Shown: positions 34,997-53,783 of the stretch, one piece after another
Numbering within the stretch: position 1 is the first letter of the stretch
Layout: every line of letters starts with the position of its first letter
Virus record (IMG/VR): IMGVR_UViG_3300028626_000002
Coordinates: 32,001-96,000 of that record
DNA from: a virus
Taxonomy: Duplodnaviria > Caudoviricetes
Reading direction: 5' to 3' (one strand)
DNA: 64,000 nucleotides
Program-made: the position numbers and the translations under genes
The notes under the pieces: model-generated
Seen by the model: only the letters and a program-made list of their open reading frames with translations
The model's database searches: none
Told to the model about the DNA's origin: nothing

Positions 34997-36613
34997 ATGG
35001 GCATGTTGCGTAACACCCTGATCAAGCACCCCGGTCTCAGGGCCCAGATGGAATTTCTGGCGGCTCAGCACGGCATCGACATCGAGTTCGTCACCCACGC
35101 GTCCCCCCAGGAAGTCAAGGTCGTTCGTCCGCCGAAGCACGTCGTCGTTCTGTCGTTCGGCAACGACAGCAGCACCCGCGGGTTTAGCGCACTGTACGAC
35201 AAGGAGCGGCTGACGTACGTCGGCCCCTGGAGCGGGTACGGCTCGTACTGCCCCGGGTGCACCTCCGGTATTCCCATCACCGTCCCGGCGGCCGCCGGCG
35301 GCACCAAGACCGTCGGTCTCCGGGTGGGCAACGTCATCTACCTGTACTTCTCCCTCGAGCAGCTGTTCGAGCATGGCACGTCGCTGGCGTGGCAGCCCGA
35401 GGACGCAGGCGGGTACGGCCTCGAGTACGTCGACGGCCTGGGGTACGGCCGGTGGGTGACTGGGGGCGATTCCGTCGCGCTGGTCCGCAAGCTCTTCAAC
35501 GACATCTTCGACAAGCACATGCCGGAAGCGGCGAAGGCCGTCCTGGAGTTCAACTGGGACATCGAGCGGGCGGACTTCGTCACCCGCCAGGCGAGGTTCT
35601 TCGCCACCGTGTTCGAGAAGTGGTCGTCGCGTCTCTCGCAGGTCGAGCAGGAGAAGTGGAACGCCGGCGAGCACCTGCGGACGCTCTGTCGAGAGGAAGC
35701 GCATCTGCGGGCATCCTGCGAGGGCTGGGAGGCCGCCGCGCCCGCCCGGAAGAAGCAGGCGGAGGACGCGTTCGACACGTACATCTCGTACGTCAAGAAC
35801 GGCGTCATCAGCGACGCCCAGTGGGCGGGGTCTACGTTCTCGTTCGTGGTCAACCCGCTGAACGTGGGCGGCGACCACGAGTACGCCACGGAGATGGGGC
35901 CGTGGAGGGTCTCGCTGGACTTCAACACGTGCGCCTGCAGCATCAGCAAGATGGACCACACCGTCCTGTCGTCGTCGGGCTTCTGGCACCCGCACATCAA
36001 CCTGAGCGGGCGCCTCTGCATGGGCAACGCCGACGCGCTGCTGCACGAGGCCGTGGGTCGCTCGGACCTGGTCGGGGCCATCGCCGTCATCCTCGAGTTC
36101 CTGCAGGGGTACAACGAGGACTCCCCGTACTGCCGTATCGAGCAGTGGAACCCCGACTACTCCGATGACGACGACCACGAGAGCTGCTACGAGAACTCGA
36201 GCCCCCATGACTGTGTGTGCTGCTACCGGGACTGCGGGTACCGCGATGACGCCGAGTCGCGGTGCTGGGACTACCACGAGGACACTCCCAAGGACTGCAT
36301 CCGCTGCCGCGACTGCGACTACGTCGACACCGCGGAAGAGAACTGTCACCGTGACCAGGTGAATTGCGGGTACGCCTGGAAGTGCGTGGGCGAGTGCGAG
36401 CTCAGCCGCTGCGCGTACTACCAGGACAGCGACAGCTGCTACGATTCCCACGAAGGCGCCGAATGCACGGACTGCTGCGTGGGCAGCGACTGCAGGCGCT
36501 ACGTGGACTCCGAGGCCGCCGAGGAGCCCGAAGAGGCCCCCGTGGAGCAGGCGGCGGAGCAGATGACACCCGTCGGCGAGGCCGTCCCCGAGACGGTGGA
36601 GGAGACCGCATGA
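34997..36613 (+). CDS. Prokaryotic E2-like protein with N-terminal domain, coiled coil and Cys-rich tail
   Basis: HPHI-x5-LC motif (His 35987, Cys 36017) followed by helix and YN..SPY; operon context. Confidence 0.7.
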   Translation: MGMLRNTLIKHPGLRAQMEFLAAQHGIDIEFVTHASPQEVKVVRPPKHVVVLSFGNDSSTRGFSALYDKERLTYVGPWSGYGSYCPGCTSGIPITVPAAAGGTKTVGLRVGNVIYLYFSLEQLFEHGTSLAWQPEDAGGYGLEYVDGLGYGRWVTGGDSVALVRKLFNDIFDKHMPEAAKAVLEFNWDIERADFVTRQARFFATVFEKWSSRLSQVEQEKWNAGEHLRTLCREEAHLRASCEGWEAAAPARKKQAEDAFDTYISYVKNGVISDAQWAGSTFSFVVNPLNVGGDHEYATEMGPWRVSLDFNTCACSISKMDHTVLSSSGFWHPHINLSGRLCMGNADALLHEAVGRSDLVGAIAVILEFLQGYNEDSPYCRIEQWNPDYSDDDDHESCYENSSPHDCVCCYRDCGYRDDAESRCWDYHEDTPKDCIRCRDCDYVDTAEENCHRDQVNCGYAWKCVGECELSRCAYYQDSDSCYDSHEGAECTDCCVGSDCRRYVDSEAAEEPEEAPVEQAAEQMTPVGEAVPETVEETA

Positions 36614-37719
36614 AGGCCGTCAGCAACGGCACTGTCCGGGTGAAGATCCTGGACCGCGAGTACCGCAAGCTCGACGCCTGGGCCCGCCTCGCCACCGGCG
36701 AGATTTCGGCCCTGGGCATGGTCGAGCTGGAGAGCGATGGTCCCCTGATCACCAGCCTCTTCATGCCCCGGCAGGTCTGCACGGGAGCCAGCAGCGACAT
36801 GAACCAGGAGGACGTGGGCGCCTACCTCTGCGAGCTGATGGCGCGCGGGGAGGAGGGCAAGCTCCGCGCCTGGGTCCACAGCCACGGTGACCTGGGGGTT
36901 TTCTGGTCCGGCACCGACCAGAACACCATCAAGGACCTGGGCAGCGATCCGTACCTGGTCTCCGTCGTCGTCAACCGTAAGGGCGAGTACAAGGCCCGCA
37001 TCGACATCAACAGCCCGTTCAAGGTCACGATGGAGGACCTGAGCCTCGTGGTGGTGTACCGGGCGGACAAGGACCTCGAGGACGAGTGCAGGGCGGAGCT
37101 GGCCGCGAAGGTCACCTCCCCGGCGCCCAGCAGCACGCTCGGACGCTTCTCCGACCGGTTCGCCGGCTTCCGGGACCCGCGCATGTCCTTCGGCCAGGGG
37201 TGGCCCCGGGACAAGGATGACGACCGCCCTTTCGCGGGAAGCGCGGCAAGCAGCGACGCGGGGGCCGCGGCCGCGCGGAGCGAGGCGACCCCGGACGTCC
37301 ATGACGAGGGGGAGGAGTCCTCCCTCGACTCGTACACGGCCCTGGAGCAGCGCTACGGGTACCTCTACGATCTCGAGGACCTCGTCGAGTTCGCACACCG
37401 CGCCGGAGGCGACCTGACCCTGTACACCGCGACGGGGTTCAAGGGCGAGGCCGTCACCTTCCGCACCGAGAGCGAGCTGGACAAGGCCCACGAGATCGGC
37501 ATGATGGACTCCCTGGCCTACGAGGTGTACTACCGGGCCCTCAACGAGTTCCGCGACCTGACCCTCCGGGGGCTGGAGGAGGCCATCGACGCGGCCTGGA
37601 CGCGGTACGACATCGACGACCCGAACAGCGGCAGGCGGCTGGAGGACGAGGACGAGGACGAGGACGAGGACCCGACGCCCCCCTCGGCGGAGGACCTGCA
37701 GGAGGCGTACACGGGATGA
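36610..37719 (+). CDS. JAB/MPN metallo-isopeptidase with acidic extension
   Basis: N-terminal Glu (GEISALG); HSH-x7-S-x2-D (WVHSHGDLGVFWSGTD). Confidence 0.85.
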   Translation: MKAVSNGTVRVKILDREYRKLDAWARLATGEISALGMVELESDGPLITSLFMPRQVCTGASSDMNQEDVGAYLCELMARGEEGKLRAWVHSHGDLGVFWSGTDQNTIKDLGSDPYLVSVVVNRKGEYKARIDINSPFKVTMEDLSLVVVYRADKDLEDECRAELAAKVTSPAPSSTLGRFSDRFAGFRDPRMSFGQGWPRDKDDDRPFAGSAASSDAGAAAARSEATPDVHDEGEESSLDSYTALEQRYGYLYDLEDLVEFAHRAGGDLTLYTATGFKGEAVTFRTESELDKAHEIGMMDSLAYEVYYRALNEFRDLTLRGLEEAIDAAWTRYDIDDPNSGRRLEDEDEDEDEDPTPPSAEDLQEAYTG

Positions 37720-38393
37720 GTGAGCAGGCGCAGCAGGTCATCACGCTCCCCAAGGAGGTCTACGTCCGCCAGAGCGGCATCCTGCCGTTCGAGGTCCTGA
37801 ACAAGTCCACCGTCACGGTCATCGGTGTCGGGGCCATCGGTTCCTTCACGGCCTTCAGCCTGGCCAAGATGGGCATCGGCACCATCCACGCCTACGATCA
37901 CGACACCGTGGAGCCCCACAACCTCCCGGCGCAGTGGTACCGGCTCAAGGACCTCGAGCAGAAGAAGCCCGACGCCCTGGCCAGCCTCCTGGCGGACTTC
38001 GGCGGCAACGTCGTGAGCCACCCGGAGAAGTTCGTGGGGCAGTCGGTCCGCGGCATCGTGGTCTGCGCCGTGGACTCGATGGACGCCCGCCTGGCCATCT
38101 GGCGGCACGTCAAGAAGTGCCCCAAGGTCGACCTGTTCATCGACGGGCGCATGGGCGCCGAGGTCGGCAAGGTCTACGCCATCCGCCCGAAGAACCCCGC
38201 GGAGGTGAAGCTGTACGAGGAGGACCTGTACCCGTCGTCCGAGGCCTTCCAGGCCCCGTGCACGGAGCGCAGCACGATCTACTGCGCCACGGGCCTCAGC
38301 GCATTCATGGTCTCCGCCATCGCCGGCTTCCTGTCGGAGCGGCAGTTCCGGCCGTACATGGTCGTGGACTTCCGCAACGGCGTGATGCTGTAG
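37716..38393 (+). CDS. ThiF/E1-like activating enzyme
   Basis: IGVGAIGS, D.DTVE.HNL..Q, AVDS..AR, DGRMG; candidate catalytic Cys in APCTE. Confidence 0.9.
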   Translation: MSEQAQQVITLPKEVYVRQSGILPFEVLNKSTVTVIGVGAIGSFTAFSLAKMGIGTIHAYDHDTVEPHNLPAQWYRLKDLEQKKPDALASLLADFGGNVVSHPEKFVGQSVRGIVVCAVDSMDARLAIWRHVKKCPKVDLFIDGRMGAEVGKVYAIRPKNPAEVKLYEEDLYPSSEAFQAPCTERSTIYCATGLSAFMVSAIAGFLSERQFRPYMVVDFRNGVML

Positions 38394-40195: not shown

Positions 40196-40223
40196 AGGGG
40201 CCGCAAGGCCCCTTCTTCTTAGC
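40196..40223 (+). terminator. GNRA hairpin + TTCTTAGC
   Basis: AGGGGCC-GCAA-GGCCCCT then TTCTTAGC; same design at 48599, 49169, 49762. Confidence 0.65.
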
Positions 40224-40943: not shown

Positions 40944-43900
40944 ATGGCGATCAGTTATGACGCAAAGGCGACGGTCGACTCCCTGATCAACACGGTTGCC
41001 AAGCGCATCGGGGTCATCTTCCCCATCGAAGGGCGGCAGCACACGCTCGAGGTGCAGGACGTGCAGGCCTCGGGCGACTGGGACATGAAGGACATCGACG
41101 GGTACATGCGTGCCAAGCTCCACGGACGCACGTGGGGCCTGCCTATCACCGGCACGCTCGTCGTGCGGGACAAGGCGACGGGCAAGGTGCTCGACCGCAA
41201 GCAGAACGCCCGCCTGATGACCCTGCCCGTGATGACCCGGCACTTCTCGTACATCGTGGACGGCAAGGAGTTCGACGCCACCCGTCAGTGGCGCCTGAAG
41301 GCCGGCGTGTACCACCGTGTGAAGGCGAACGGTCAGCTGGAGGCCCAGTGGAACCTCAGCGAGGGGCGCGGCTTCCACACCGCCTTCGACCCCGCTCGGC
41401 ACAAGTTCACGATGCAGTACGCGTCGTCCACCGTGTCGCTGTACCCGGTCCTGCGTGCTCTGGGCACGTCGGATGCCGAGATCAGCCGGGCATGGGGGCC
41501 GGACCTGCTCGAGGGCAATGTCGGGTCTCCCGCGACCAGCGCCAGGGACCTCACGAAGCTCTACAAGGCCATCACCGGCAAGCCCCCGGCGGACGAGAAG
41601 GAGATGCTGCTGACCATTCGCGACACGTTCGCGAAGACGGCCATGCGCCCCGACGTCAACAAGATCACCCTCGGCCGGCCCGACGACCGGGTCACCCCTG
41701 GTGGGCTGCTGCAGTCCTCCAAGCGCCTGTTGGACATGTCCCGGGGCAAGGGGGAGCCCGATGCCCGCGACAGCGTGGTGTTCAAGGAGCTGCTGGACAT
41801 CGACGACTTCGTCGACGACCGCCTCGTGGCGATGACCCGCAAGATCCAGGGCAAGGTGCGCAACCGACTGGACCACGAGAACAAGGTCGACGCCATCTAC
41901 TCCGCGGACTACATGAACCACCCCGTCAAGACGTTCTTCACGGGGATGTCGCTGGCGGAGCAGCCGCGGCAGGTGAACCCCGTCGACATGTTCAGCTCCA
42001 TGACGAAGACCACGGTCATGGGCGAGGGCGGCATCCAGTCTTCCCACGGTGTGCCCCTCGAGGCACGCATCCTCGACAACAGCCACGTGGGCGTGCTGGA
42101 CCCCATCCACAGCCCCGAGGGCGGGAAGGTGGGCATCAACCTGCATCTGGCCCTGGGCGCCGGCAAGCAGGGCAGGGAACCCACGCTCTACGTGCGCGAC
42201 CCGGCAACCGGCAAGATCGAGACCAAGACCGTGCAGGACCTGGAGCCCCTGACCCTGGCGTTCCCCGACCAGTTCATCCGCCGGCCGGACGGCAAGATGC
42301 AGCCGGTGGCGAAGATGGTCACCGCCCTGGGGCCGGGCAACGAGATCGTGCGGGTGCCGGCGTCGAAGGTGGACTTCGTCTTGCCGACGCCCAAGGCCAT
42401 GTTCAGCATCACCGGCAACCTCGTCCCGTTCCTCCAGAACACCTCCGGCCCGCGCGTGTCCTACGCGATGCACCACATGGAGCAGGCCCTGGCACTGAAG
42501 TACCGGGAGCAGCCCCTCATCGCGGTGGCCTCCGGCGGTGAGCGCGCCCCCACCTTCGAGGACCTCGTCGGCAGGTACTTCACCTCCCGGGCTCCCGTGG
42601 ACGGCCGCGTCGTGCGCGTCGCCAAGGACCACATCAGCATCCGGGGGACCGACGGCAAGCTCTACAAGGAGCCGCTGTACGTCGACTACCCGCTGAACGA
42701 GAAGTCGGCGTTCATCAACAGCGAGCCGGTGGTCAAGGCGGGCGACAAGGTCGAGAAGGGACAGGTCGTCGCGGACACGAACCACACCCGGGACGGGCAG
42801 CTGGCCCTGGGCGTGAACCTCAAGACCGCGTACATGCCCTACCTCTCGAACACCTACGACGACGCCATCGTCATCTCGGAGTCGGCGTCGCAGAAGCTCA
42901 CGTCGCAGCACCTGTACAAGGAGCGCCTGGACGTCGACGAGGACATCACCGTCGACAAGGCCAAGTACCGGGCCATGTACCGCGACCGTCTGGACGACCG
43001 GCAGGCGAAGCAGCTGGACAACGAGGGTGTGGTACAGGAGGGCACCGTCGTACAGCCCGGGGACGTGCTGGTGACGGCTCTGCGGAAGCGCAGCCCCACC
43101 GAGGAAGAGCTGCTGGTCCGCGGCATCGCGAAGAGTCTGGCCCGGCCCTTCGCCGACGTGGCCGTGCGGTGGGAGAGCCAGTACCCGGGCGTGGTCAAGC
43201 GTGTGGTGAAGAACGGGGACAACATCCAGGTTCACGTGGCCAGTGAGGAGCCGGCCGGCGTGGGCGACAAGCTCTGCTTCGACCCCGAGACCGAGTACCT
43301 GGTGGAAGGCAAGGGCTGGGTGAAGAGCCCGCTGCTCACGCCGGACGACCGAGTGCTCACGTACAAGGCCCCCGAGAACCCCAGCCACCGCCGGTCCACC
43401 GCGGATGGGTGGCTCGAGTGGCAGTACCCGACACGGGTCGTGGAGTTCGACCACGACGGCCAGATGTACCGCGTGCTGACGGCCGAGATCGACCAGTTCG
43501 TGACGCCGAACCACAACCTCTACGTGAAGGTGCTGACGCGTGACCATCAGACCCTCCGGCAGAACCGCTTCCGGCTGGTGCAGGCCAGGAAGGTGCTGGG
43601 CAAGCCCGTCGTGCACGCGCAGTACGGCGCCAACGAGAATGTCCATGAGCCGGCCTCCCTGGAGTTCGGCAAGCGGACGGTGCCCACGCGGTCGTACCTG
43701 AAGCTGCTGGCCCACCTGTTCCGTCACGGCATCCGCCGGGACCAGCTGGTGTTCTTCCCCGGCAACGGCTACTCGGCGTCCTGCCGGCAGGCCATGGACG
43801 AGTGCGGCATCACGTACTCCATCCGCACCGTGGACAGCCGCGGCGGGCTGCTGACGAGCGACCCGCTGGTCTGCGACGTGGACTTCGAGAACAGCCTCCC

Positions 43901-45518
43901 GGCGTTCCTGGACACCCTGCCCACCCGGACCCTCAGCGCGTTCCTCCACGACCTGTTCCGCGGCACCCCGATGCTGTCCACCCAGCGCCACGGGGCCGGG
44001 TGCACCCGCATCGTGAACCGCAGCATGATCGACAGGCTGCAGGAACTGGGCGTCCGCGCCCGGGTGGTGTTCTGCGTGTCCCCCGGCCCGGGGGACAAGT
44101 ACACGGCGTCCATCACCGTTCTCGGCAGTCGCGCGGCGGTGGGGAGCCCCGTCAACTTCGAACGGCGCGGGAAGAACGATGGCCTGGTGCAGTACACCGG
44201 CAAGGTCTACTGCTGCACGGTCCCGAACGGCATCCTGGTGACCCGCCGGAACTTCAAGGTGGTGCTCTCGGGCAACAGCGGCCGGCATGGCAACAAGGGC
44301 GTCATCTCGACGGTCCTGCCTGACGACCAGATGCCGCGCACCAAGGACGGGCCGGTCGACATCATCCTGAACCCCCTCGGCATCCCGAGCCGCATCAACG
44401 TGGGCACGGTCCTCGAGACCAGCCTGTCGAAGGTGGCGAAGAAGGAGGGGCGGCAGATCGCCGTGTCGAACTTCGAGCCCGACCCCTCGAAGCGCATCGT
44501 CCGCAAGACCATTCATGTGGCCCCTCACTCCCGTACCATCCAGACGAAGGAGGGCCCCAAGACCGTCCAGGTGGAGGGATACTCCTATGAGCGCGACTAC
44601 ACGGAAGCGGTCGAGGCGGAACTCGCGAAGGCGGAAATCTCCGAGAAGGAAGAGGTCACGGATCCGGTGTCCGGGAAGAGCGTGGGCAACGTCCTGGTGG
44701 GTTACCAGTACACCATCAAGCATGTCCACCAGGCTGAGAAGAAGCTCGCCGCCCGCTCTGGGGGCCCCGGGTACGACTACGACGCCAACATGGCTCCCAA
44801 GTCGTCCGGCCATGCCAGTGGCCAGTCGATGGGCGAGCTGGGCCTCTACAGCCTGCTGAGCCACGGCGCCCTCAGCCTCATCCGCGAGGGCACCACGTAC
44901 AAGTCCGATGCCTCCCAGAGCGAGGTGTGGACCGCGCTCCAGACCGGTGAGCCCCTGCCCCCGCCGAAGCCCAGCTTCGCCTACGGGAAGTTCCTGTCCC
45001 TGCTGTCGGCCATGGGCGTGGCCGTGGATCGCACGGGCAGTCAGCTGAGCCTGCGGCCGACCACCGACGAGGATGTCCTGAAGCGGTCGAATGGCGAGCT
45101 GAAGGAGTCCACGCTGACCCTCCGCGCCAAGGACCTGAAGCCGGAGGAGGGCGGGCTCTTCGACGAGCGCATCACCGGCGGCATCCGGGGGGACCGCTGG
45201 TGCTTCGCGCACGACACGCTGGTGCTGACCGAGTGGGGTCCCATGCGCATCGGGACTCTCGTCGAGCACCGCATCCAGGTTCGAGTGTGGTCCTACGACT
45301 TCCAGGCGAAGGAGTTCGTGCTGCGACCCATCACCGAGTGGCACCGGAACGAGACCGACCCGTCTGTCGAGCCGGTGGGCACGCTGGTCTACCACACGCC
45401 GTACGGTGTCCTGGAGGCCCTGCACGGCACCTTCAAGCACGAGCTGATGACCGAGGATGGCGGGCGGCGGCCCATGGGTGAATCCGAGGCGCTCCTCTAC
45501 GTGGACCAGGACGCATGA
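40944..45518 (+). CDS. rpoB: Phage RNA polymerase beta subunit fused to beta' N-terminus; cis intein and C-terminal split-intein N-half
   Basis: SPEG.KVGI, LALGVNL, DDAIVIS, GDKL|SGRHGNKG, ILNPLGIPSRINVG, GQSMGELG, then beta'-type KPEEGGLFDERITG. Confidence 0.9.
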   Translation: MAISYDAKATVDSLINTVAKRIGVIFPIEGRQHTLEVQDVQASGDWDMKDIDGYMRAKLHGRTWGLPITGTLVVRDKATGKVLDRKQNARLMTLPVMTRHFSYIVDGKEFDATRQWRLKAGVYHRVKANGQLEAQWNLSEGRGFHTAFDPARHKFTMQYASSTVSLYPVLRALGTSDAEISRAWGPDLLEGNVGSPATSARDLTKLYKAITGKPPADEKEMLLTIRDTFAKTAMRPDVNKITLGRPDDRVTPGGLLQSSKRLLDMSRGKGEPDARDSVVFKELLDIDDFVDDRLVAMTRKIQGKVRNRLDHENKVDAIYSADYMNHPVKTFFTGMSLAEQPRQVNPVDMFSSMTKTTVMGEGGIQSSHGVPLEARILDNSHVGVLDPIHSPEGGKVGINLHLALGAGKQGREPTLYVRDPATGKIETKTVQDLEPLTLAFPDQFIRRPDGKMQPVAKMVTALGPGNEIVRVPASKVDFVLPTPKAMFSITGNLVPFLQNTSGPRVSYAMHHMEQALALKYREQPLIAVASGGERAPTFEDLVGRYFTSRAPVDGRVVRVAKDHISIRGTDGKLYKEPLYVDYPLNEKSAFINSEPVVKAGDKVEKGQVVADTNHTRDGQLALGVNLKTAYMPYLSNTYDDAIVISESASQKLTSQHLYKERLDVDEDITVDKAKYRAMYRDRLDDRQAKQLDNEGVVQEGTVVQPGDVLVTALRKRSPTEEELLVRGIAKSLARPFADVAVRWESQYPGVVKRVVKNGDNIQVHVASEEPAGVGDKLCFDPETEYLVEGKGWVKSPLLTPDDRVLTYKAPENPSHRRSTADGWLEWQYPTRVVEFDHDGQMYRVLTAEIDQFVTPNHNLYVKVLTRDHQTLRQNRFRLVQARKVLGKPVVHAQYGANENVHEPASLEFGKRTVPTRSYLKLLAHLFRHGIRRDQLVFFPGNGYSASCRQAMDECGITYSIRTVDSRGGLLTSDPLVCDVDFENSLPAFLDTLPTRTLSAFLHDLFRGTPMLSTQRHGAGCTRIVNRSMIDRLQELGVRARVVFCVSPGPGDKYTASITVLGSRAAVGSPVNFERRGKNDGLVQYTGKVYCCTVPNGILVTRRNFKVVLSGNSGRHGNKGVISTVLPDDQMPRTKDGPVDIILNPLGIPSRINVGTVLETSLSKVAKKEGRQIAVSNFEPDPSKRIVRKTIHVAPHSRTIQTKEGPKTVQVEGYSYERDYTEAVEAELAKAEISEKEEVTDPVSGKSVGNVLVGYQYTIKHVHQAEKKLAARSGGPGYDYDANMAPKSSGHASGQSMGELGLYSLLSHGALSLIREGTTYKSDASQSEVWTALQTGEPLPPPKPSFAYGKFLSLLSAMGVAVDRTGSQLSLRPTTDEDVLKRSNGELKESTLTLRAKDLKPEEGGLFDERITGGIRGDRWCFAHDTLVLTEWGPMRIGTLVEHRIQVRVWSYDFQAKEFVLRPITEWHRNETDPSVEPVGTLVYHTPYGVLEALHGTFKHELMTEDGGRRPMGESEALLYVDQDA
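43275..44276 (+). mobile_element. Cis intein (334 aa) in RNAP beta
   Basis: Starts CFD; block B VTPNH; block F VYCCTV; ends SGN before Ser; removal restores GDKLSGRHGNKG. Confidence 0.9.
45201..45515 (+). mobile_element. Split intein N-fragment (105 aa)
   Basis: CFAHDTLVLT..G...I..LV, block B GTFKH, then stop with no terminal Asn. Confidence 0.85.
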
Positions 45519-46147
45519 ACAGGACGCTCACCAGGGACCAGATGCTCGAGCTCCAGCACAAGCACGCACCCGACGTGCAGCTGGTGGCCGAGCCGAAGCA
45601 CTGGATCGGCAGCTTCTACATGCCGAAGTCCCGGGTGGCGAAGGCGCTGTACGGCGACTACCCCGAGAGCATCGTGGCCCCCGGCAAGTCCCCCGGCGTG
45701 TTCCTGCATGAGTTGGGGCATGCCACTCCGAGCAAGCTCCGCTCGGCGCTGCACCCCTTCTACTCCGTCGGCGGGGCCGGGTCGGCCATGATGCTGTTCG
45801 CCCCCGGCAAGGCCCGGCTGGCCGGCGCTGCGCTCTACGCTCCGACCGTGGCCGAAGAGGTCCGGGCCTGGGTGGCGGCCAAGAAGTACGCCAAGGAGCA
45901 CGGCATCCACATCGACGCGAAGTACCCGGCGTTGGGACTGGGCAGCTACATGCTGCCACCGGTCTACGCCGCGGTGCACGCGCTGAAGCGAAAGGGCATG
46001 CGCCCGCTGACGGCGAAGGGCCGCAAGATCGCCTGGGCCACCACCGGCGCCGTCATCGGGGTGCAGGAGGCTCTGGACTACCTGCAGGGGCGGAAGGCTG
46101 TCAGGGCGCTGCGCCGGGCGCAGGAGAACGGGGGGCAGTTCCGATGA
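45515..46147 (+). CDS. HExxH zinc metallopeptidase-like protein
   Basis: FLHELGHA with downstream EE.RAW. Confidence 0.55.
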   Translation: MNRTLTRDQMLELQHKHAPDVQLVAEPKHWIGSFYMPKSRVAKALYGDYPESIVAPGKSPGVFLHELGHATPSKLRSALHPFYSVGGAGSAMMLFAPGKARLAGAALYAPTVAEEVRAWVAAKKYAKEHGIHIDAKYPALGLGSYMLPPVYAAVHALKRKGMRPLTAKGRKIAWATTGAVIGVQEALDYLQGRKAVRALRRAQENGGQFR

Positions 46148-46689
46148 GGGGTGCTGACTCCATCCAGTACCTGCGAGGCCTGGGCGTCTTCCCCGGCCGT
46201 GGACGCCGGACCATCATCAGTCGCCTCTACAAGCACCACATCGGGGGCTACGACAGCGGGAAGTGGATCCAGAAGCAGGCAGCCTGTGACCCTCGCCTCA
46301 AGCTCCTCGGTTGCGTGGCCGGCATCAGGGTCTTCCAGGTGGACGGCGAGGCGGTGCGCCTGCACTACCTCGCCGACTTCGTCCAGGGAGGCAACCACGA
46401 GGTCTACCCGTGGGTCCCGGAGAACGAGGTCTGGGTCGAGGACAACCTCTCCCGCCCCAAGGCCCTACTCATCGCCCTGCACGAGCTCGTCGAGCGGGCA
46501 TGGATGAAGCGCGGCCGCAAGTACCCAGTGGCCCACGTGTACGCCTTGTCGGTGGAGCGCTACTGCAGGCAGCACCCCGCCGCCATTCACACCCTGCTCA
46601 CCGCGGCGGCCCACGGCGTCCTCTTGGCCATGCCCGAGGAGCGCAAGGTCATCGAGCGGCAGAACGCTCGCGCGCGCAGCGAGGGCTGA
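46144..46689 (+). CDS. Hypothetical protein (HExxE motif)
   Basis: LHELVE...AH; ATGA coupling. Confidence 0.5.
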   Translation: MRGADSIQYLRGLGVFPGRGRRTIISRLYKHHIGGYDSGKWIQKQAACDPRLKLLGCVAGIRVFQVDGEAVRLHYLADFVQGGNHEVYPWVPENEVWVEDNLSRPKALLIALHELVERAWMKRGRKYPVAHVYALSVERYCRQHPAAIHTLLTAAAHGVLLAMPEERKVIERQNARARSEG

Positions 46690-46721
46690 CGCCCGGCAAG
46701 AACGTGATTTCTCAGGTATAA

Positions 46722-47363
46722 GTGCCTTGCACCCCGAACCATAGGAGGTCTACGTTGGGAGCCCCTCGTCGTCCGCCGGAAGTGAAGGCAGAGGAGGCCA
46801 CGCCGCACCAGAAGTACTGGCTGGCCAACGGCATGGAGGTCCGGCCGTTCCGGTGGGACCCCAGCACCGAGAGCGTCATGTGCAGCCGGGAGATCAGCCC
46901 GGGGCACCGCAAGCGCGACTACCCCGTCAAGTTCGGCACTACTCTCTTTACCACCCCGCCGCTGAAGGTCGAGAAGCCGGCGGCGGGGGAGGAGCAGTTC
47001 GACACGTCCGCAGCCAGGACCGTCCGCCTGGATTGCACCAAGCCCAACCTCAGCGGTCCGCTCAGCCCGGAGTTCCGGGAAGAACTCCAGGTGCCGACGG
47101 CAGGCGCAGCGCTCCCGCCGGTCCAGGCCAACGCGGCGCCTGACGACGCCATGGGTCGCATGATGGCGCTCCACGCTCTTCGAGAGGCCATGACGGCGGC
47201 TCTGAGCGAGAACACCAGCCGGAAGTGGCAGTACTTCCTCATCGCCTGCCGCCTCAACCCGCAGCTGCGGGCCACGAAGTCCATCCTGGTTCAGGCCGAA
47301 CTGGACGCCCGGGCGGTGGACGCCCAGTCGACGGAAATCATGAACGCTGCCAAGAAGCTCTAG
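46722..47363 (+). CDS. Hypothetical protein (start uncertain)
   Basis: ORF downstream of GGTATAAG motif. Confidence 0.45.
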   Translation: MPCTPNHRRSTLGAPRRPPEVKAEEATPHQKYWLANGMEVRPFRWDPSTESVMCSREISPGHRKRDYPVKFGTTLFTTPPLKVEKPAAGEEQFDTSAARTVRLDCTKPNLSGPLSPEFREELQVPTAGAALPPVQANAAPDDAMGRMMALHALREAMTAALSENTSRKWQYFLIACRLNPQLRATKSILVQAELDARAVDAQSTEIMNAAKKL

Positions 47364-47370
47364 GAGAGGA

Positions 47371-47859
47371 ATGACCATGCCCACCAAGAAGAAGGCCGAG
47401 CCCGCGAAGAAGGCCACCGGTCCGAAGTCCGTCGTCAAGGACGTCACCGCCCCGCCGCTGCTGGTCACCGTGAAGGGCCACAAGTACGGCCTGGACGTGG
47501 AGACGGAGGAGGGGAAGCCCTCCGTCAAGTGCGACTTCGTGGCCGGCGCGCCCAAGCACTACGACCTGGGGGACGGCTACCTGATGATGTCGGGCGAGCT
47601 GCAGCTCGCCAACGGCCAGACCGCCTACGCCGTGCTCGAGATCAGCCTCGAGGACGGCGGCGAGCACTGCGGCACCGGCTTCATGATCCCGGCCTACGAC
47701 GGGCAGCCGCAGGCCATCGTCTTCCAGGGCGAGAGCAACTTCCTGCCGCAGATGCGGCGGTTCGGGCTCTCGTCCAAGGACATCTTCCCGTACCGCTACA
47801 ACTACCACGAGCACCTCGAGCGTGACCACCACGTGGGCGACGACGGCTGGAGCCTCTGA
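47371..47859 (+). CDS. Hypothetical protein
   Basis: RBS; strong GC3. Confidence 0.6.
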   Translation: MTMPTKKKAEPAKKATGPKSVVKDVTAPPLLVTVKGHKYGLDVETEEGKPSVKCDFVAGAPKHYDLGDGYLMMSGELQLANGQTAYAVLEISLEDGGEHCGTGFMIPAYDGQPQAIVFQGESNFLPQMRRFGLSSKDIFPYRYNYHEHLERDHHVGDDGWSL

Positions 47860-48101
47860 TGGGCAAGTCCAGCATCACCATGGACACGCTGCTGGACTTC
47901 ATCGACGCCCTCGAGGGGGACGTGCTGGACCGGGTTACCGAGTTCCTCGACGAGCACGTCTGCGACGGGAAGGCGGCGGAGGCGTCCGAGATCAACAACT
48001 GCGGTCCCCTGACGCAGCTGGAGTACATCCTGGGCGACCCGAGTCCGTCGGAAGAGGCGCTGCAGGACATGCTGTCTGGCCTCAAGTACGCGGCGGAGTA
48101 G
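47859..48101 (+). CDS. Small acidic hypothetical protein
   Basis: TGATG coupling. Confidence 0.55.
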   Translation: MGKSSITMDTLLDFIDALEGDVLDRVTEFLDEHVCDGKAAEASEINNCGPLTQLEYILGDPSPSEEALQDMLSGLKYAAE

Positions 48102-48159
48102 GGTGCTTGGCTCCGGGCGGAAGTCGTCGTAGAATCACCCGTTGAACCGGAGAGCTGAC

Positions 48160-48372
48160 ATGCTGAGGGTCGGGAGCCTGGCGTACACCGTCGAGGTGCT
48201 GCGGGACAAGATGGGCGGCAGCAAGCCCCTCATCGTGCCCGTGCGCATCCAGGAGATGCCGAACGAGGCCGGGGAGTACCTGGTGACCTACGTTGCCAGC
48301 CCCGTCGAGCGCAAGCCCTTCCGCTGCAAGAAGGTGTTCGAGACCAAGTCCGAAGCACTGAGGGCACCGTGA
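48160..48372 (+). CDS. Small hypothetical protein
   Basis: RBS GGAG; codon usage. Confidence 0.5.
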   Translation: MLRVGSLAYTVEVLRDKMGGSKPLIVPVRIQEMPNEAGEYLVTYVASPVERKPFRCKKVFETKSEALRAP

Positions 48373-48593
48373 AACTGCAGGTCTACAAGGTCCGCGCGTA
48401 CATCGAAGTCGAGGCGCCGCCGAAGTTCGAGGGCATCCTCGCGGAGATGACCGACGACATGCTGAAGAGCATGCTGCCGGCCGACGACATCACCACCCCG
48501 GACGGCACGGTTGTGCGCTTCGTCGGCTCGATGGTCACCGAGGTCGAGACCACTACCATGACCGTCGACTACGAGCCCCCCGAGGCAGCGTAG
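48369..48593 (+). CDS. Small hypothetical protein
   Basis: GTGA coupling. Confidence 0.5.
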   Translation: MKLQVYKVRAYIEVEAPPKFEGILAEMTDDMLKSMLPADDITTPDGTVVRFVGSMVTEVETTTMTVDYEPPEAA

Positions 48594-48598
48594 GGGAC

Positions 48599-48628
48599 AA
48601 GGGGGCGTAAGCCCCCTTGTTTCTTAGC
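48599..48628 (+). terminator. GNRA hairpin + TTCTTAGC
   Basis: AAGGGGGC-GTAA-GCCCCCTT. Confidence 0.65.
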
Positions 48629-48774
48629 TGACAGGCGGTATTTCATCCTCCGATTGTGGGATAAGAAGTACGGAAGAGGAGGACTGCTTCGTTTGGGGTG
48701 GAGCACCCCCGGAAGACGAAGCAGCCCCCAAGGCGAGCGCCCCCTGCGCGGGGCCATGCAAAGGAGGTTCCCTC

Positions 48775-49113
48775 ATGTGCAACCGGCTGCTGGTCGTGAC
48801 GATGGACGGGAAGGGCAACGCGAGGATCGTGAACAACGAGCTGATGATGGACGCGCCGGCCGCGACCAGGCGGACCGTCGAGGTGCTGAAGGGCCTGACC
48901 GACGAGGGCGTCGCCGCGGTCGTGGTCGAGACGGACTTCAAGGGGTACTTCCTGGGCCTGCGCGCGGACCTGGCGGTCATCGCGGCGAAGCCGGACCCCC
49001 TGACCGAGGCGGTCCAGGGCATCCTCGAGGTGCTGAAGGCGCGGCTCCCGGCCGCGACCCCGATCCCGACCCCGGTGCCGGAGCCCACGCCCGACGTGCC
49101 CCCCGCGGCCTGA
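48775..49113 (+). CDS. Hypothetical protein
   Basis: RBS AAGGAGG. Confidence 0.55.
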   Translation: MCNRLLVVTMDGKGNARIVNNELMMDAPAATRRTVEVLKGLTDEGVAAVVVETDFKGYFLGLRADLAVIAAKPDPLTEAVQGILEVLKARLPAATPIPTPVPEPTPDVPPAA

Positions 49114-49168
49114 CCCCGGCCGCCCGCGCGACGCGGGCATGAACCGCCGGACTTCCCCGTGTGCGAGA

Positions 49169-49194
49169 GAAGGGCGAAAGCCCTTCTTCTTAGC
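49169..49194 (+). terminator. GNRA hairpin + TTCTTAGC
   Basis: GAAGGGC-GAAA-GCCCTTC. Confidence 0.65.
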
Positions 49195-49296
49195 CCGGAT
49201 CTGCACACCTTCAAGTGGGCATAAGAACTGCGGAAAGGGCGTGCCTGGTCGGCTCGCCCTCATGTCGTCGCCCTCGGGCGAATGCAGGAGCAAAAG

Positions 49297-49701
49297 ATGA
49301 AGACGGCGCTGATCACGGGCATCACGGGGCAGGACGGCAGCTACCTGGCAGAGCTGCTCCTCGGGAAGGGTTACCGGGTGGTGGGGCTGATGCCCCGCCG
49401 GTCCAACCCGGACGTGCAGACCGCCAAGCTGGCCCCGGTCATACCCAGCCCCGACTTCATCCTGGAGTCGGGCGACCTCACCGACGGCGGGTCGCTGGCC
49501 CGCCTCGTCCGCCTGGCGCAGCCGGACGAGGTGTACAACAGCGAGGTCCGGGGGGAGATCCGCGCCACGGCCGCGGACCTCGGCTTCCCCATCACCCCCG
49601 ACCAGGTTGAGTGGGTCAAGGTCGCCATCATCCCCCGCGTTCGGAGCGTCCGCGCCCTGGAGGTGGCCGTCAAGGCGGCGTTCTCCCCGGGAGGCTCCTG
49701 A
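49297..49701 (+). CDS. gmd: Truncated GDP-mannose 4,6-dehydratase N-terminus fused to unrelated tail
   Basis: ALITGITGQDGSYLAELLL.KGY, GDLTD, QPDEVYN; similarity stops there. Confidence 0.7.
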   Translation: MKTALITGITGQDGSYLAELLLGKGYRVVGLMPRRSNPDVQTAKLAPVIPSPDFILESGDLTDGGSLARLVRLAQPDEVYNSEVRGEIRATAADLGFPITPDQVEWVKVAIIPRVRSVRALEVAVKAAFSPGGS

Positions 49702-49761
49702 AGCGTCCCCACGCGCGCCAGGTAGGCGCGCAAGCCCCGGCAGCTCGCCGGACCCCAGAAG

Positions 49762-49786
49762 AACAGGCGCAAGCCTGTTTCTTAGC
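49762..49786 (+). terminator. GNRA hairpin + TTCTTAGC
   Basis: AACAGGC-GCAA-GCCTGTT. Confidence 0.6.
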
Positions 49787-49833
49787 CCCTCGACTCTGCT
49801 ACAATTTAACCCAGGACCTTGAGGCAAGCCTGC

Positions 49834-49956
49834 ATGAAACTGGTCAGCGCACCCTGCAAGTGGCACCCGTCCCAGACCAACGAGCGGCAGGTCCTCTACA
49901 ACATCGGTGTCGACGACACCCACAACTACATCGCCGGCGGCGTGCTGGTGGGCAAC
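49834..49956 (+). mobile_element. Split intein C-fragment (41 aa)
   Basis: MKLV...LYNIGVDDTHNYIAGGVLVGN followed by Ser. Confidence 0.88.
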
Positions 49957-52944
49957 TCCCACTTCAAGCTGGCCGAGCCGATGCCCAACCCGGTCTACGA
50001 GCGCGCCATTCGTGCTCTCACCGGGCTCAGCTCGGAGCAGTACCACGGCATCCTGGAGGGCAAGCTGGCCCTCTCCCCGGACGGCACACTGGTGCCCGAC
50101 GATGACCAGGAAGGGGTCCTGCGGGGCGGCTACGCCTTCGAGAAGCTGCTCTCGTCCATCGACCGGGACAAGGAGCTGGATGGCCTCCTGTCGTCCGCCG
50201 CGACCGCCAGAGGGCAGAAGCTCGACGACATCGTGAAGAAGGCGAAGATCCTTCGCGGGCTGAAGAAGGCCAACCTCCAGCCCACGGTGTACCTGCAGCG
50301 CGTCATGCCCGTGCTGCCCCCGCAGCTCCGACCCATCACCATCACCGGCAGCGGGGACATCTCCTACGACGACCTGAACGGCGTCTACAAGGCCATCGCC
50401 CTGGACAACAAGCAGCTGACGGACTTCCCGAAGGGTCTGCCGGAGACCGAGAAGGGGCACGTCCGGGCGGAGCTGTACGACGGCATGAAGTCTCTGGCCG
50501 GTCTCGACGGCGCGCTGAACCGGGAGCAGGAGATCAAGGGCATCCTCGACCTCATCCACGGCAGCGAGCTGAAACACGGCTTCTTCCAGAAGAACCTGAT
50601 GAAGCGGCGCCAGGACATGACCGCGCGCGGTGTCGTCATCCCCGACATGAACGTCGGCATGGACGAGCTGGGCATCCCGAAGACCGTGGCCAAGACGCTC
50701 TACGAGCCCTTCGTCGTGAAGGAGCTGACGCAGCCGCCCTACTCGATGAACGTCGCCGACGCCAAGCAGGCGCTGAAGGACGAACGCGAGGCGGCCATGC
50801 GCATCCTCGACACGCAGCTGGAGAAGCGCCCCCTGGCGATGAAGCGCGACCCCGCCCTCCACCGCCACAGCGTCCAGGGGTTCTACCCGAAGATCGTGTC
50901 CGGGAACGCCATCCGCGTGAGCCCCCTCGTCGTGGCCGGGTACAACATGGACTTCGACGGCGACCAGGTCAGCCTGTACGTGCCCGTGACGAACGAGGCG
51001 GCCGAGGACGTCAAGCGCATGACCCCCAGCAACATTCTGAAGAGCCCCACCAGCCACGAGATCATGTACTTCCCCCGGCTGGAGGCGCAGCTGGGGCTGT
51101 TCATGATGACCAAGCCCGGAGAGCGCAAGGCCACGGCCTACAGCAGCGAGTCCGCCCTGCTGAAGGACTACGTCGACGGCAAGCTCGAGCAGACGGACAT
51201 CGTGCGGCTCAACGGGAAGGACACCACGCCGGGCCGGGCTATCGTGGCCGGTGCGCTGCCCGCCGGCGAGACCCGGGAGAAGGTGCTGCATGACCTCGAC
51301 TTCGACCTCACTGGCAAGAACACCCGGCGCATCATCGGAGCACACGCGTCGGAGCCCAACGTCTACAAGGGCATCGTGCAGAAGCTGAACCAGATCGGCT
51401 TCACCCAGGCCACCGCCATGGGGTACAGCGTGGGGCTGAAGGACTTCCGTACGCTCAAGGTCATCCGGGACGCGGCGTTGAAGAAGGCCGACATCGCGGC
51501 GTCGCACCTCCCCGAGCACGCCCCCGACCGCAACGAGCGGCTGGTGAAAATCTACATGGACGCGTCGGAGGAGATCCGGGAGGGGGCCGAGAAGAAGTTC
51601 GGCAAGGAGTTCAACGCGCTGATGACCATGTGGAAGGCAGGGGCCAAGGGCGACTGGCTGAACATCCGCCAGATCCTGTCCACCCCCATGATCGTCGACA
51701 GCCCCACGGGCCCCGTGCCGCTGCCCATCCGCCACTCGTACAGCGAGGGCCTGGACTCGGCGGAGTACTGGATCGCCGGGCACGGCGCCCGCAAGGGCAT
51801 GTACGACCGCGTCATGGAGGCCAGCCTGCCCGGGTCCATCAACAAGCAGCTGACCAACGTGGCGATGGGCATGTCCATCACCGAGCCCGACTGTGGGGTG
51901 AAGGCGGGGATCAGCCGCCCCGTCGACTCCCCCGACATCATCGACCGCTACACCGCGGAGCCCGTGAAGATCGGCAGCAGGACCCTGCCCAAGAACACGC
52001 TCATCACGTCGCAGATCGTGGACAGCCTGAAGAAGGCCAAGAAGACCTCAGTGGTGATCCGCAGCCCGCTGCGATGCTCCGCCCACAAGGGCATGTGCTC
52101 GAAGTGCTACGGCCTGGGCCCGGACGGCAAGCCGGCCAGCGTGGGGACCAACGTCGGCGTCATCGCCGCGCAGGCCCTCGGCGAGCGCGGCACCCAGCTG
52201 GCCCTGCGGAGCTTCCACTCCGCCGGCGCCACCTCGACGAAGAAGTCGGTCATCAACAGCATCGGGCGCGTGCGGCAGCTGGTGGCCATGCCCGAGATCC
52301 TGCCGGGCAGCGCCACGCTTTCCACCGAGGGCGGAACCGTCTCGAGGGTCGAGAAGGACCCGGCCGGCGGCTTCCGGGTGTGGGTGGGCGACACCGACCA
52401 CTACGTGCCGTTTGGCATGGACCTCATCAAGAAGCGCGGCGACAAGGTGAAGAGGGGCGAGGCCCTGTCGAAGGGCGTCGTGAACCCCCACGAGCTGCTG
52501 CCGCTGGCCGGCGTCAACGCGGTGCAGAGCTACCTGGCCGACGAACTGGACGGGCTGTACTCGCGAGAGGGTGTGCGGCGGGTGCACGACGAGGTGCTCG
52601 TCCGCGCCGTCACGAACCTGGGCACCGTCGTGGACCCCGGGGACCATCCCGACCTTCTGCCGTCGGACACCACCAGCGTGCAGTCCATCGAGGCCTGGAA
52701 CGCGGAGCACCGCGGCGAGAAGCCGGTGAAGTACGAGACGGTGCTGAAGGGCGTGGACGTGCTGCCCCTCGAGCAGACCGAAGACTGGCTTACAAGGCTG
52801 GCGTACAGGCGACCTGCTGAGACCATTACCCGGGGGGCCGTGGAGGGCTGGACGAGCCACCTGCATGGAAACTCCCCTGTTCCCGGGGTGGTCTACGGTG
52901 CCGAGTTTGGCCTTCCCCCGAAGGGCAGCAAAACCCCCTATTGA
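49834..52944 (+). CDS. rpoC: Phage RNA polymerase beta' subunit with N-terminal split-intein C-half
   Basis: PVLPPQLRP, DLN..Y, KRDPALHR, catalytic YNMDFDGDQ (50944-50964), GARKG, RSPL.C...C.KCYG, GERGTQL.LRSFH. Confidence 0.92.
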   Translation: MKLVSAPCKWHPSQTNERQVLYNIGVDDTHNYIAGGVLVGNSHFKLAEPMPNPVYERAIRALTGLSSEQYHGILEGKLALSPDGTLVPDDDQEGVLRGGYAFEKLLSSIDRDKELDGLLSSAATARGQKLDDIVKKAKILRGLKKANLQPTVYLQRVMPVLPPQLRPITITGSGDISYDDLNGVYKAIALDNKQLTDFPKGLPETEKGHVRAELYDGMKSLAGLDGALNREQEIKGILDLIHGSELKHGFFQKNLMKRRQDMTARGVVIPDMNVGMDELGIPKTVAKTLYEPFVVKELTQPPYSMNVADAKQALKDEREAAMRILDTQLEKRPLAMKRDPALHRHSVQGFYPKIVSGNAIRVSPLVVAGYNMDFDGDQVSLYVPVTNEAAEDVKRMTPSNILKSPTSHEIMYFPRLEAQLGLFMMTKPGERKATAYSSESALLKDYVDGKLEQTDIVRLNGKDTTPGRAIVAGALPAGETREKVLHDLDFDLTGKNTRRIIGAHASEPNVYKGIVQKLNQIGFTQATAMGYSVGLKDFRTLKVIRDAALKKADIAASHLPEHAPDRNERLVKIYMDASEEIREGAEKKFGKEFNALMTMWKAGAKGDWLNIRQILSTPMIVDSPTGPVPLPIRHSYSEGLDSAEYWIAGHGARKGMYDRVMEASLPGSINKQLTNVAMGMSITEPDCGVKAGISRPVDSPDIIDRYTAEPVKIGSRTLPKNTLITSQIVDSLKKAKKTSVVIRSPLRCSAHKGMCSKCYGLGPDGKPASVGTNVGVIAAQALGERGTQLALRSFHSAGATSTKKSVINSIGRVRQLVAMPEILPGSATLSTEGGTVSRVEKDPAGGFRVWVGDTDHYVPFGMDLIKKRGDKVKRGEALSKGVVNPHELLPLAGVNAVQSYLADELDGLYSREGVRRVHDEVLVRAVTNLGTVVDPGDHPDLLPSDTTSVQSIEAWNAEHRGEKPVKYETVLKGVDVLPLEQTEDWLTRLAYRRPAETITRGAVEGWTSHLHGNSPVPGVVYGAEFGLPPKGSKTPY

Positions 52945-52988: not shown

Positions 52989-53783
52989 ATGAAGCGGGTC
53001 TCGGCCGAGGTGCGGCGTCAAGCTCTTGCCATGTACGCAGCGATGGTCCCCACGGCGACCATCGCGAAGGTGTTGTCGCTGTACCCCAGCACCGTGTCCC
53101 ACTGGGCGCGCGCCGCGGGCGTGACCAGGCCCCGCTCGGAGTCCTGTCGCAAGTACACGCTGGACACGAAGTTTTTCGCCAGCATCGACTCGGAGGCCAA
53201 GGCGTACTGGCTGGGATTTCTCTACGCCGACGGTTGCGTGTACCGGCAGACCGTGCGCGTTCTGCTCTCCTCGACTGACGAGGGGCACCTGCAGCGGCTG
53301 CTGAACTGCGTTGGCAGCGACCAACCCATTCGGAGTGTGCGCTGCGGGAAGCACCCGGGGGCGCTGCTGGTTGTGCGGAGCTGCGACTGGGTGATGGACC
53401 TGAGTCGGCACGGCGTATGCCCACGCAAGACCTACACCGGTCAGCACCCCACTAATGTACCGGCAGCGCTGGTGCGGCATTTCGTACGGGGGGTGTTCGA
53501 CGGGGATGGCTGCGTCTCGTACTCTCGCAACCAGGCCGCCGTTGATTGGACAGGCGGGGAGGCGTTTCTTCGGTGGCTGGCGGTGCAGATCACCACAGAG
53601 GTGGGGTTGTCGGGGCACTCCCCGCGCAAGACGGCCAGCAAACATGCCTGGCGTTTGCAGTACGCCGGCAACCGCCAAGCCGCAGCACTTCGTGACTGGA
53701 TGTACCGAGATGCAACGGTGTGGTTGCCGCGTAAGCGCGAACGGTTTGATCAGCCGCCGACGAGCAGCAAGACCCCGTATTGA
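52989..53783 (+). CDS. Double-motif LAGLIDADG homing endonuclease with N-terminal HTH
   Basis: YWLGFLYADGC and FVRGVFDGDG; atypical codons. Confidence 0.88.
   Translation: MKRVSAEVRRQALAMYAAMVPTATIAKVLSLYPSTVSHWARAAGVTRPRSESCRKYTLDTKFFASIDSEAKAYWLGFLYADGCVYRQTVRVLLSSTDEGHLQRLLNCVGSDQPIRSVRCGKHPGALLVVRSCDWVMDLSRHGVCPRKTYTGQHPTNVPAALVRHFVRGVFDGDGCVSYSRNQAAVDWTGGEAFLRWLAVQITTEVGLSGHSPRKTASKHAWRLQYAGNRQAAALRDWMYRDATVWLPRKRERFDQPPTSSKTPY

Follow-up and report, generated by a model that had tools for sequence, protein, structure and literature searches.

How a phage could obtain a single-chain RNA polymerase (RNAP) from two separate genes is the question raised by a locus in the IMG/VR virus record IMGVR_UViG_3300028626_000002, a metagenomic contig of 125 kb and ~66% G+C with a completeness estimate of 68%. 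The stretch analysed, hereafter the window, comprises bases 32001-96000 of that record (64,000 nt), and positions are given in window numbering. It contains a gene for the beta subunit (gene A) that runs on into the beginning of beta' and finishes with what resembles the N-terminal half of an intein (IntN), and, 4.3 kb further on, a gene for the remainder of beta' (gene B) headed by what resembles the C-terminal half (IntC). A sequence-only reading of this DNA had proposed that a naturally split intein restores a single beta-beta' chain. At the level of sequence this proposal is supported, because removal of the halves gives an exact extein join, homologues of both halves are found in a single family of contiguous inteins, the catalytic residues are retained and the layout is conserved in a clade. 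We consider it probable that the locus encodes an inherited, naturally split class-1 intein which is active in trans-splicing and produces one beta-beta' chain.

The break inside beta' and the fused polymerase family

Gene A, called in the database as the protein P0003 of 1524 amino acids (aa), can be divided into a first extein (residues 1-777), an insertion termed intein 1 (778-1111), a second extein (1112-1419) and IntN (1420-1524), with the stop codon at 45516-45518 straight after the latter. Its N-terminal junction reads GDRW/CFAHDTLVL, the slash marking the splice point here and below. Gene B begins M...LYNIGVDDTHNYIAGGVLVGN/SHF, with blocks F and G, a terminal Asn and a Ser at +1 all located at the head of a separate open reading frame (ORF). 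Identical proteins are carried by a 184.8-kb contig in the database, and beta' is present as a single copy in the genome. Translation confirmed that, as had been read from the letters alone, the halves comprise 105 aa (45201-45515) and 41 aa (49834-49956) and that IntC ends in Gly-Asn followed by Ser. The product of about 2080 aa anticipated after two splices was also recovered as the sum of the exteins left on removal of intein 1, IntN and IntC (777 + 308 + 995 = 2080 aa).

For gene B, eleven IMG/VR relatives with 31-35% identity were retrieved, and the nine that contain the beta-beta' frame whole within the retrieved stretch all encode it without interruption, in a single frame of 2016-2571 aa. 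When longer proteins were searched, at least 190 fused beta-beta' proteins were found, mostly of 2,040-2,160 aa and on contigs of up to ~200 kb, which provided the uninterrupted homologues that the sequence-only reading had advised looking for. At the point corresponding to the break, the nine IMG/VR loci and the uninterrupted proteins P0116-P0122 read GGLFD-x3-TGG-x2-G-x-x-W, followed directly by (N/S/T/A)-H-(I/F)-x-L-A-E-P. Excision of both halves from the products of genes A and B yields GDRW-SHFKLAEP, in the same register as in these relatives and with zero residues gained or lost, as expected from the claim that the joined DRW/SHF matches a conserved beta' segment. In several of the uninterrupted relatives, Ser is already found at the +1 position.

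The usual zinc ribbon of beta' had also been described as missing from this phage. It is indeed absent, with ~12 Cys-free residues between GGLFD...TGG and H-x-x-LAEP, but this holds across the whole fused family and not for this phage alone. As the fused relatives are both uninterrupted and ribbon-less, the single chain and the absence of the zinc ribbon are family traits rather than peculiarities of the phage studied here. Further traits of the family are present in the window (Rpb2 domains before Rpb1 domains, DFDGD and GGLFD..TGG..W.H..LAEP), and the tree described below places the gene inside the fused family. A single beta-beta' chain is the ancestral norm of this large phage family.

A near-identity DNA search of the phage collection gave no match, and a protein search for cultured phage relatives returned only distant ones, at most 29% identical (Vibrio phages D69/D148/D181 and Rhizobium phage RHph_Y65), plus bacterial contaminants. 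The fused family of large uncultured phages possibly overlaps the 'mReC' phages of Weinheimer & Aylward 2020 (PMC7481178), a paper in which neither fusion nor inteins are mentioned for its phages.

Resemblance of the two halves to split and contiguous inteins

IntN was similar over 94 residues to the N-intein of Npu DnaE (4lx3_A, E 7.8e-6; 4qfq_A was also matched, at ~1e-5), its block B GTFKHELMT aligning with TKDHKFMT of the latter; the block-B His is invariant in the seven split and eight contiguous relatives described below. Among the NCBIfam models, IntN matched intein_Nterm (E 1.3e-3) and positions 775-853 of the 876 of PRK09532 (DNA polymerase III subunit alpha; E 4.7e-5), a stretch that we take to be the split-intein tail of cyanobacterial DnaE. 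In a full HMMER scan of 1.8 billion representatives, 103 proteins were matched by IntN at E ≤ 1e-3, and many of the top matches begin around residue 1040-1440 of fused polymerases of 1.6-3.7 kaa (thousand aa). The similarity to Npu DnaE (E 8e-6) and these 103 proteins among 1.8 billion together exclude a chance resemblance.

IntC matched the Pfam family Intein_splicing at E 0.008, in an alignment to the final positions of the profile. When a profile was built from four IntC sequences of the clade described below, it matched among solved structures the Hint domain 6y75 (1.7e-6), the Spl DnaX mini-intein 7cfv (1.5e-5) and Npu IntC 4lx3_B (0.098), and more weakly PolB, CDC21, RecA, NrdJ-1 and gp41-1, being aligned to the C-terminal strands of Hint domains. 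The check with intein profiles that the sequence-only reading had called for was thus positive for IntN in NCBIfam, weakly positive for isolated IntC in Pfam, and negative for isolated IntN in Pfam.

Contiguous inteins of 439-445 aa were found in eight fused polymerases (P0009, P0016, P0024, P0029, P0030, P0066, P0070 and P0102). Their first ~105 residues match positions 45201-45512 of the window with E-values of 1e-11 to 5e-18, IntN being 29-39% identical to them in tblastn, and their last 33-48 residues match 49834-49956 (E 1e-4 to 2e-6). Their middle, endonuclease part, for which a Pfam LAGLIDADG_2 core was detected in P0102, has no match anywhere in the 4.3-kb block between the halves. As the ends of the contiguous inteins map onto the two halves, the intein is split at the canonical place, where the endonuclease is inserted. 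The contiguous inteins thus resemble the split intein in family (blocks A, B, F and G align), in host protein and in the short beta' segment that they occupy, and differ from it in being unbroken, in having an endonuclease domain and in their site of insertion, TGGxxG/S-x-W. This site is located three residues upstream of the W/S site of the split intein, which is therefore related to its contiguous neighbours but not allelic with them. In P0011, yet another intein is found just before GLFD, and the short beta' segment around W/S is an intein hot spot.

Inheritance, selection and alternative explanations

Seven beta genes ending in IntN (P0003, P0004, P0005, P0006, P0007, P0012 and P0060) and six beta' genes starting with IntC (P0110, P0111, P0112, P0113, P0115 and P0235) were found, the closest to those of the window being P0004 (exteins 91-92% identical) and P0235 (94%). 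Every member of this clade keeps Cys1, the block-B His, the block-F/G His, the terminal Asn and Ser+1, at a mutual identity of roughly 30-75% among the IntN (n=7) and the IntC (n=6) sequences. In a quick maximum-likelihood IQ-TREE run on beta' exteins, in which five split proteins were included among fused forms, the five made up one clade (83 in the Shimodaira-Hasegawa-like approximate likelihood ratio test, SH-aLRT), sister to the uninterrupted fused P0116 (support 100) and nested among the fused forms. This topology is most simply read as one origin of the split from an ancestor with a single chain.

In a sister phage, represented by a scaffold of 144,598 nt, P0007 and P0111 are encoded on the same strand by a beta-IntN gene at 127658-123114 and an IntC-beta' gene at 76136-71385 of that scaffold, that is, 46,977 nt apart as computed from the record coordinates. 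Homologues of two genes placed between the halves in the sister phage sit downstream of beta' in the window, and the genes upstream of beta are syntenic; these shifts in gene order show that the halves moved relative to each other. The layout of the window is repeated in the independent assemblies L018 and L103. The split intein is an inherited feature of the clade and not a peculiarity of one phage.

The ratio of nonsynonymous to synonymous substitution rates (dN/dS) was calculated for each part against these two assemblies. Compared to L018, the exteins were 91-92% identical in aa with a dN/dS of 0.09-0.10 (0.10 for extein 2), intein 1 was 88% identical (0.11) and IntN 70.5% (0.28), and compared to L103 the beta' extein was 95% identical (0.13) and IntC 76% (0.64). 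Purifying selection acts on the exteins and on IntN. The intein halves evolve faster than the polymerase, without decay.

Several findings weigh against a split intein that is fully active. The dN/dS of IntC is high, although it was obtained on just 41 codons with the changes clustered in the loop before block F. In the lineage formed by the window and P0235, IntC has three substitutions, of the block-F Asp by Asn (LYNI vs. YDI), of AN by AG and of the penultimate Ser by Gly, at positions that are invariant in the other 12 aligned sequences, so that the Asp by which block F is usually recognised is not found there. As this residue helps to couple the steps of splicing in well-studied inteins, its replacement means that splicing activity may be reduced; the block F/G residues in question are common and not defining, and inteins without them are known. 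Also, charge complementarity between the halves is not consistent across the clade (IntN -14 to +2, IntC -6 to 0), and Pfam barely detects them.

The same residues (Asn for the block-F Asp, a penultimate Gly and Gly for the conserved Asn) and the same IntC dN/dS of 0.64 would suit a splicing-dead split, in which the halves serve as a non-covalent docking module for a two-chain polymerase, or one half merely cleaves, and no bond between the exteins is made; cellular RNAPs do function with separate beta and beta' chains. However, the break is located ~35 residues inside beta' instead of at the beta/beta' boundary, and the retained Hint domain of 146 residues would sit in the clamp. The conservation of Cys1, of the His residues of block B and block F/G, of the terminal Asn and of Ser+1 in every member, over ~50% extein divergence, would be unnecessary for mere docking, and the three odd IntC residues are common to two phages, which means that they are fixed rather than the outcome of random decay. 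We hold the loss of splicing to be decidedly unlikely. That the polymerase genes are decaying or dispensable, or that unrelated pieces were joined by an assembly artefact, is barely credible, even for a metagenomic contig estimated to be 68% complete: purifying selection on the exteins is strong (dN/dS 0.09-0.13), neither ORF is disrupted and no catalytic motif is missing, beta' is single-copy, and the surroundings recur in other assemblies, namely the block after gene A in L018 and the promoter region before gene B in L103.

The split could also be a regulatory device, with halves that differ in timing or amount and a polymerase that is active only when both are present, as in a natural AND gate. 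Terminator-like hairpins lie between the halves, gene B has a conserved extended -10 of its own, and an identical element, formed by a hairpin with a GNRA loop followed by TTCTTAGC, precedes both of them. The 125-kb genome contains four copies of this element, none of them outside the RNAP locus: each half is preceded by one, and two are found around small cassettes. L018, the closest relative, also carries it upstream of the beta gene (L018 about 190-224), and the element may have a terminator or regulatory function specific to this locus. Gene B very likely has its own promoter behind a terminator, because the hairpin is followed by TGCTACAAT and the 140 nt upstream of gene B are 84% identical in L103 despite a different upstream ORF there. 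The element before both halves and the extended -10 of gene B would fit separate transcription, perhaps with coordinated control, and prove neither. Nevertheless, the same element before both genes fits coordinated expression equally well, and the variable distance and neighbours of the halves in the relatives resemble the outcome of neutral drift that followed an accident with a selfish element, as in the gene-breaking model (Dassa et al., PMC2677866). A regulatory role of the split is thus regarded as unlikely.

If the split intein is active, as preferred here, gene A would be translated into a 1524-aa precursor from which the 334-aa LAGLIDADG intein is removed in cis, and the 1036-aa product of gene B would be made independently, its gene probably being served by a promoter of its own that follows a terminator-like hairpin. 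IntN, at the tail of the first protein (105 aa), and IntC, at the head of the second (41 aa), would then associate into one Hint domain. There the usual four steps would take place: Cys1 would undergo an N-S acyl shift, transesterification would transfer the chain to Ser+1, the terminal Asn would cyclise, and an O-N shift would complete the ligation of GDRW to SHFKLAEP, giving the 2080-aa chain that the relatives encode in one gene. We infer that the halves associate, that this chemistry takes place and that the ligated chain is the active enzyme. Regarding its origin, a contiguous, endonuclease-bearing intein in the intein-prone beta' segment probably lost its endonuclease and was then broken, after which the gene halves would have drifted apart through genome rearrangement, to 4.3 kb here and to 47 kb in the sister phage.

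The surrounding locus and comparison with known systems

The positions of the features are listed in Table 1.

Table 1. Features of the RNAP locus in window numbering; folding energies and z scores are given for hairpins.
Feature	Position	Strand	Description	Basis or values
Gene A	40944-45518	+	1524-aa precursor: beta, intein 1, beta' N-terminal segment, IntN	Translation; Pfam Rpb2 domains 3, 6, 7
Intein 1	43275-44276	+	334-aa putative cis intein in beta, inserted in GDKL/SGRHGNKGV	
Extein 2	44277-45200	+	308 aa: beta C-terminal part, linker, first beta' residues, ending GGLFDERITGGIRGDRW	Alignment to uninterrupted fused relatives
IntN	45201-45515	+	105-aa N-half: Cys1, blocks A, N2, B, N4; starts CFAHDTLVL	
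Intervening block	45515-49701	+	Nine or ten ORFs: 210, 181, 213, 162, 80, 76, 74, 112, possibly 53, 139 aa	
Gene B	49834-52944	+	1036 aa: IntC, then beta' extein	Translation
IntC	49834-49956	+	41-aa C-half, blocks F and G, ending HNYIAGGVLVGN; Ser+1 at 49957	
Beta' extein	49957-52944	+	995 aa, starts SHFKLAEP, catalytic YNMDFDGD	Pfam Rpb1 domains 1, 2, 4, 5
Hairpin upstream of beta gene	40197-40223	+	GCAA loop, then TTCTTAGC	-20.6 kcal/mol, z -3.6
Hairpin, terminator-like	48598-48628	+	GUAA loop, then TTCTTAGC	-21.5 kcal/mol, z -5.6
Hairpin, terminator-like	49166-49194	+	GAAA loop, then TTCTTAGC	-18 kcal/mol, z -3.9
Hairpin upstream of gene B	49759-49786	+	GCAA loop, then TTCTTAGC; then extended -10-like TGCTACAAT at 49797-49805, ~30 nt before gene B start	

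The sequence-only reading had counted about nine genes and three terminators between the halves, and had remarked that a block of separate genes is found there instead of a homing endonuclease. Both statements agree with the present data. The ORFs of the block, the first of which overlaps the stop of gene A (ATGA), showed no match to Pfam, PHROGs or NCBIfam except for the gmd fragment described below, and no endonuclease family was detected among them. The three terminator-like GC hairpins are all in the last 1.3 kb of the block (-13 to -21.5 kcal/mol, z -3.8 to -5.6); one of them was called by a consensus terminator scan and the other two were read from the sequence and supported by folding. 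The first five ORFs are 57-76% identical in L018, which has one extra gene among them, and are thus real phage genes. The last ORF (49282-49701) opens with the N-terminal ~90 residues of GDP-mannose 4,6-dehydratase, including its Rossmann GxxGxxG part, and continues with unrelated sequence; it is a truncated, captured gmd gene. Its best cellular matches (45-58% identical) are scattered over many phyla and give no clue to the host, and its absence upstream of beta' in the 94%-identical L103 indicates rapid gene turnover at this spot.

Some further observations concern the neighbourhood of the halves. The first ORF of the block (45515-46147) has a HExxH-type motif, FLHELGH, is 75% identical in L018 and has no family match; it may encode a small metallopeptidase. 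The 162-aa protein (47371-47859) has a weak homologue at L022 18-272 (28% identity, E 2e-7), directly upstream of IntC-beta' in a clade member, so that the beta' half may be accompanied by part of the block when it moves. A ThiF/E1-containing operon upstream of beta (35753-38390) is syntenic in the 47-kb-split relatives L013 (5496-8975) and L016 (2531-5967), and the region downstream of beta-IntN is not conserved between these and the window. Directly after beta', a free-standing LAGLIDADG gene is found (52989-53783), the product of which ends in PPTSSKTPY, echoing the end of beta' (PPKGSKTPY). This gene was considered as the lost endonuclease of the split intein and rejected, because neither the endonuclease cores of the contiguous inteins nor intein 1 show any similarity to it.

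Intein 1 starts with CFDPETEY and ends with VVLSGN, having Cys1, a terminal Asn and Ser+1. Its site is also occupied in P0004, P0005, P0007 and P0012, and it is absent at exactly that point in P0006 and in nine fused relatives. No match was found to Pfam or to the PDB sequences. Its AlphaFold2 (AF2) model was weak (predicted local distance difference test, pLDDT, of 52, from four sequences), with the PhoVMA, TliVMA and PI-SceI inteins (VMA-type, E 2e-5) and I-DmoI as top Foldseek matches, which at this model confidence are suggestive; intein 1 is most likely a LAGLIDADG-bearing cis intein.

Other insertions were seen in the polymerases of the relatives. P0005 (L016) has two beta inteins 11 residues apart (residues 501-835 and 847-1198), L008 has one at HTPEG/C (residues 407-746), and further LAGLIDADG inteins are found in the beta' part of P0111 and P0115. 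In the 2571-aa frame of L012, an insertion of 534 aa (residues about 1400-1933) interrupts the catalytic motif as YNMDFDGD/TILGS...VVQD/SVGVYVPV; with Thr at its start and Asp at its end in place of Cys...Asn, it would be an atypical intein at the active site.

Natural split inteins are, to our knowledge, few, and each new one is directly useful for protein ligation; the junction of the present one, with Trp at -1 and Ser-His-Phe at +1 to +3, is unusual, and a panel of diverged natural partners comes with it. Split inteins are known from cyanobacterial DnaE, from PolB of N. equitans and from phage-like gp41, NrdJ, IMPDH, TerL and PolB. For RNA polymerase subunits, contiguous inteins are known from eukaryotes and giant viruses (PMC1635734, PMC5871332), and in the open-access literature no report was found of a split intein in a multisubunit RNA polymerase or of the single-chain form of this phage family. 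If our reading is true, a multisubunit-type RNA polymerase, needed for phage gene expression, can depend on protein trans-splicing. It is a possible, if doubtful, extension that the split acts as an AND gate, two separately transcribed genes being needed for the 2080-aa polymerase, and that the clade offers orthogonal Cys1/Ser+1 pairs tolerating Trp at -1.

Compared to the other phages of the fused family, the one studied here is alike in its bacterial-type Rpb2/Rpb1 domains, in DFDGD, in the absence of the N-terminal zinc ribbon of beta' and in genome size (~125-200 kb), and differs in that the chain of its clade is broken by a split intein. Among inteins of solved structure, the closest to IntN are those of Npu/Ssp DnaE (4lx3, 4qfq and 2keq), which give the best match (E 8e-6), yet the identity is only ~25-30% over the aligned stretch. 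The break is canonical in both, and the half sizes are of the DnaE type, as had been anticipated (105 + 41 aa here vs. chains of 108 and 36 residues in 4lx3). Both also have Cys1, the block-B TxxH, the terminal Asn and no penultimate His, with the halves at separate, uncoupled places in the genome. In contrast to DnaE, the host protein here is a multisubunit RNA polymerase encoded in a phage genome, the +1 residue is Ser and not Cys, Trp is found at -1, and Asn occupies the block-F position at which Asp is found in DnaE and in the clade relatives. Charge complementarity, a feature of the DnaE and gp41-1 pairs, is not clear between the halves described here.

The other systems to be compared are the fractured genes of phage-like metagenomic loci (gp41-1, gp41-8, NrdJ-1 and IMPDH-1), whose defining trait is that the halves enclose a homing endonuclease gene, free-standing and of the GIY-YIG or Vsr-like type (PMC2677866); RNA polymerase is not among the eight enzyme types of Dassa et al. 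2009 (PMC2677866). As in these, the gene of an essential phage enzyme is broken by a split intein, with the original order and strand retained at one locus. Here, however, what separates the halves is 4.3 kb of DNA with nine or ten unrelated genes and no endonuclease, and in the sister phage the distance is 47 kb. As no homing endonuclease is found in the block, the term 'fractured gene' as used by Dassa et al. (PMC2677866) does not apply to the locus, which corresponds to the later 'genomic uncoupling' step of their model. The relatives form an evolutionary series, from an uninterrupted fused gene through a contiguous, endonuclease-bearing intein within three residues of the site to halves 4.3 kb and finally 47 kb apart, illustrating the last, 'uncoupling' step of the gene-breaking model within phage genomes.

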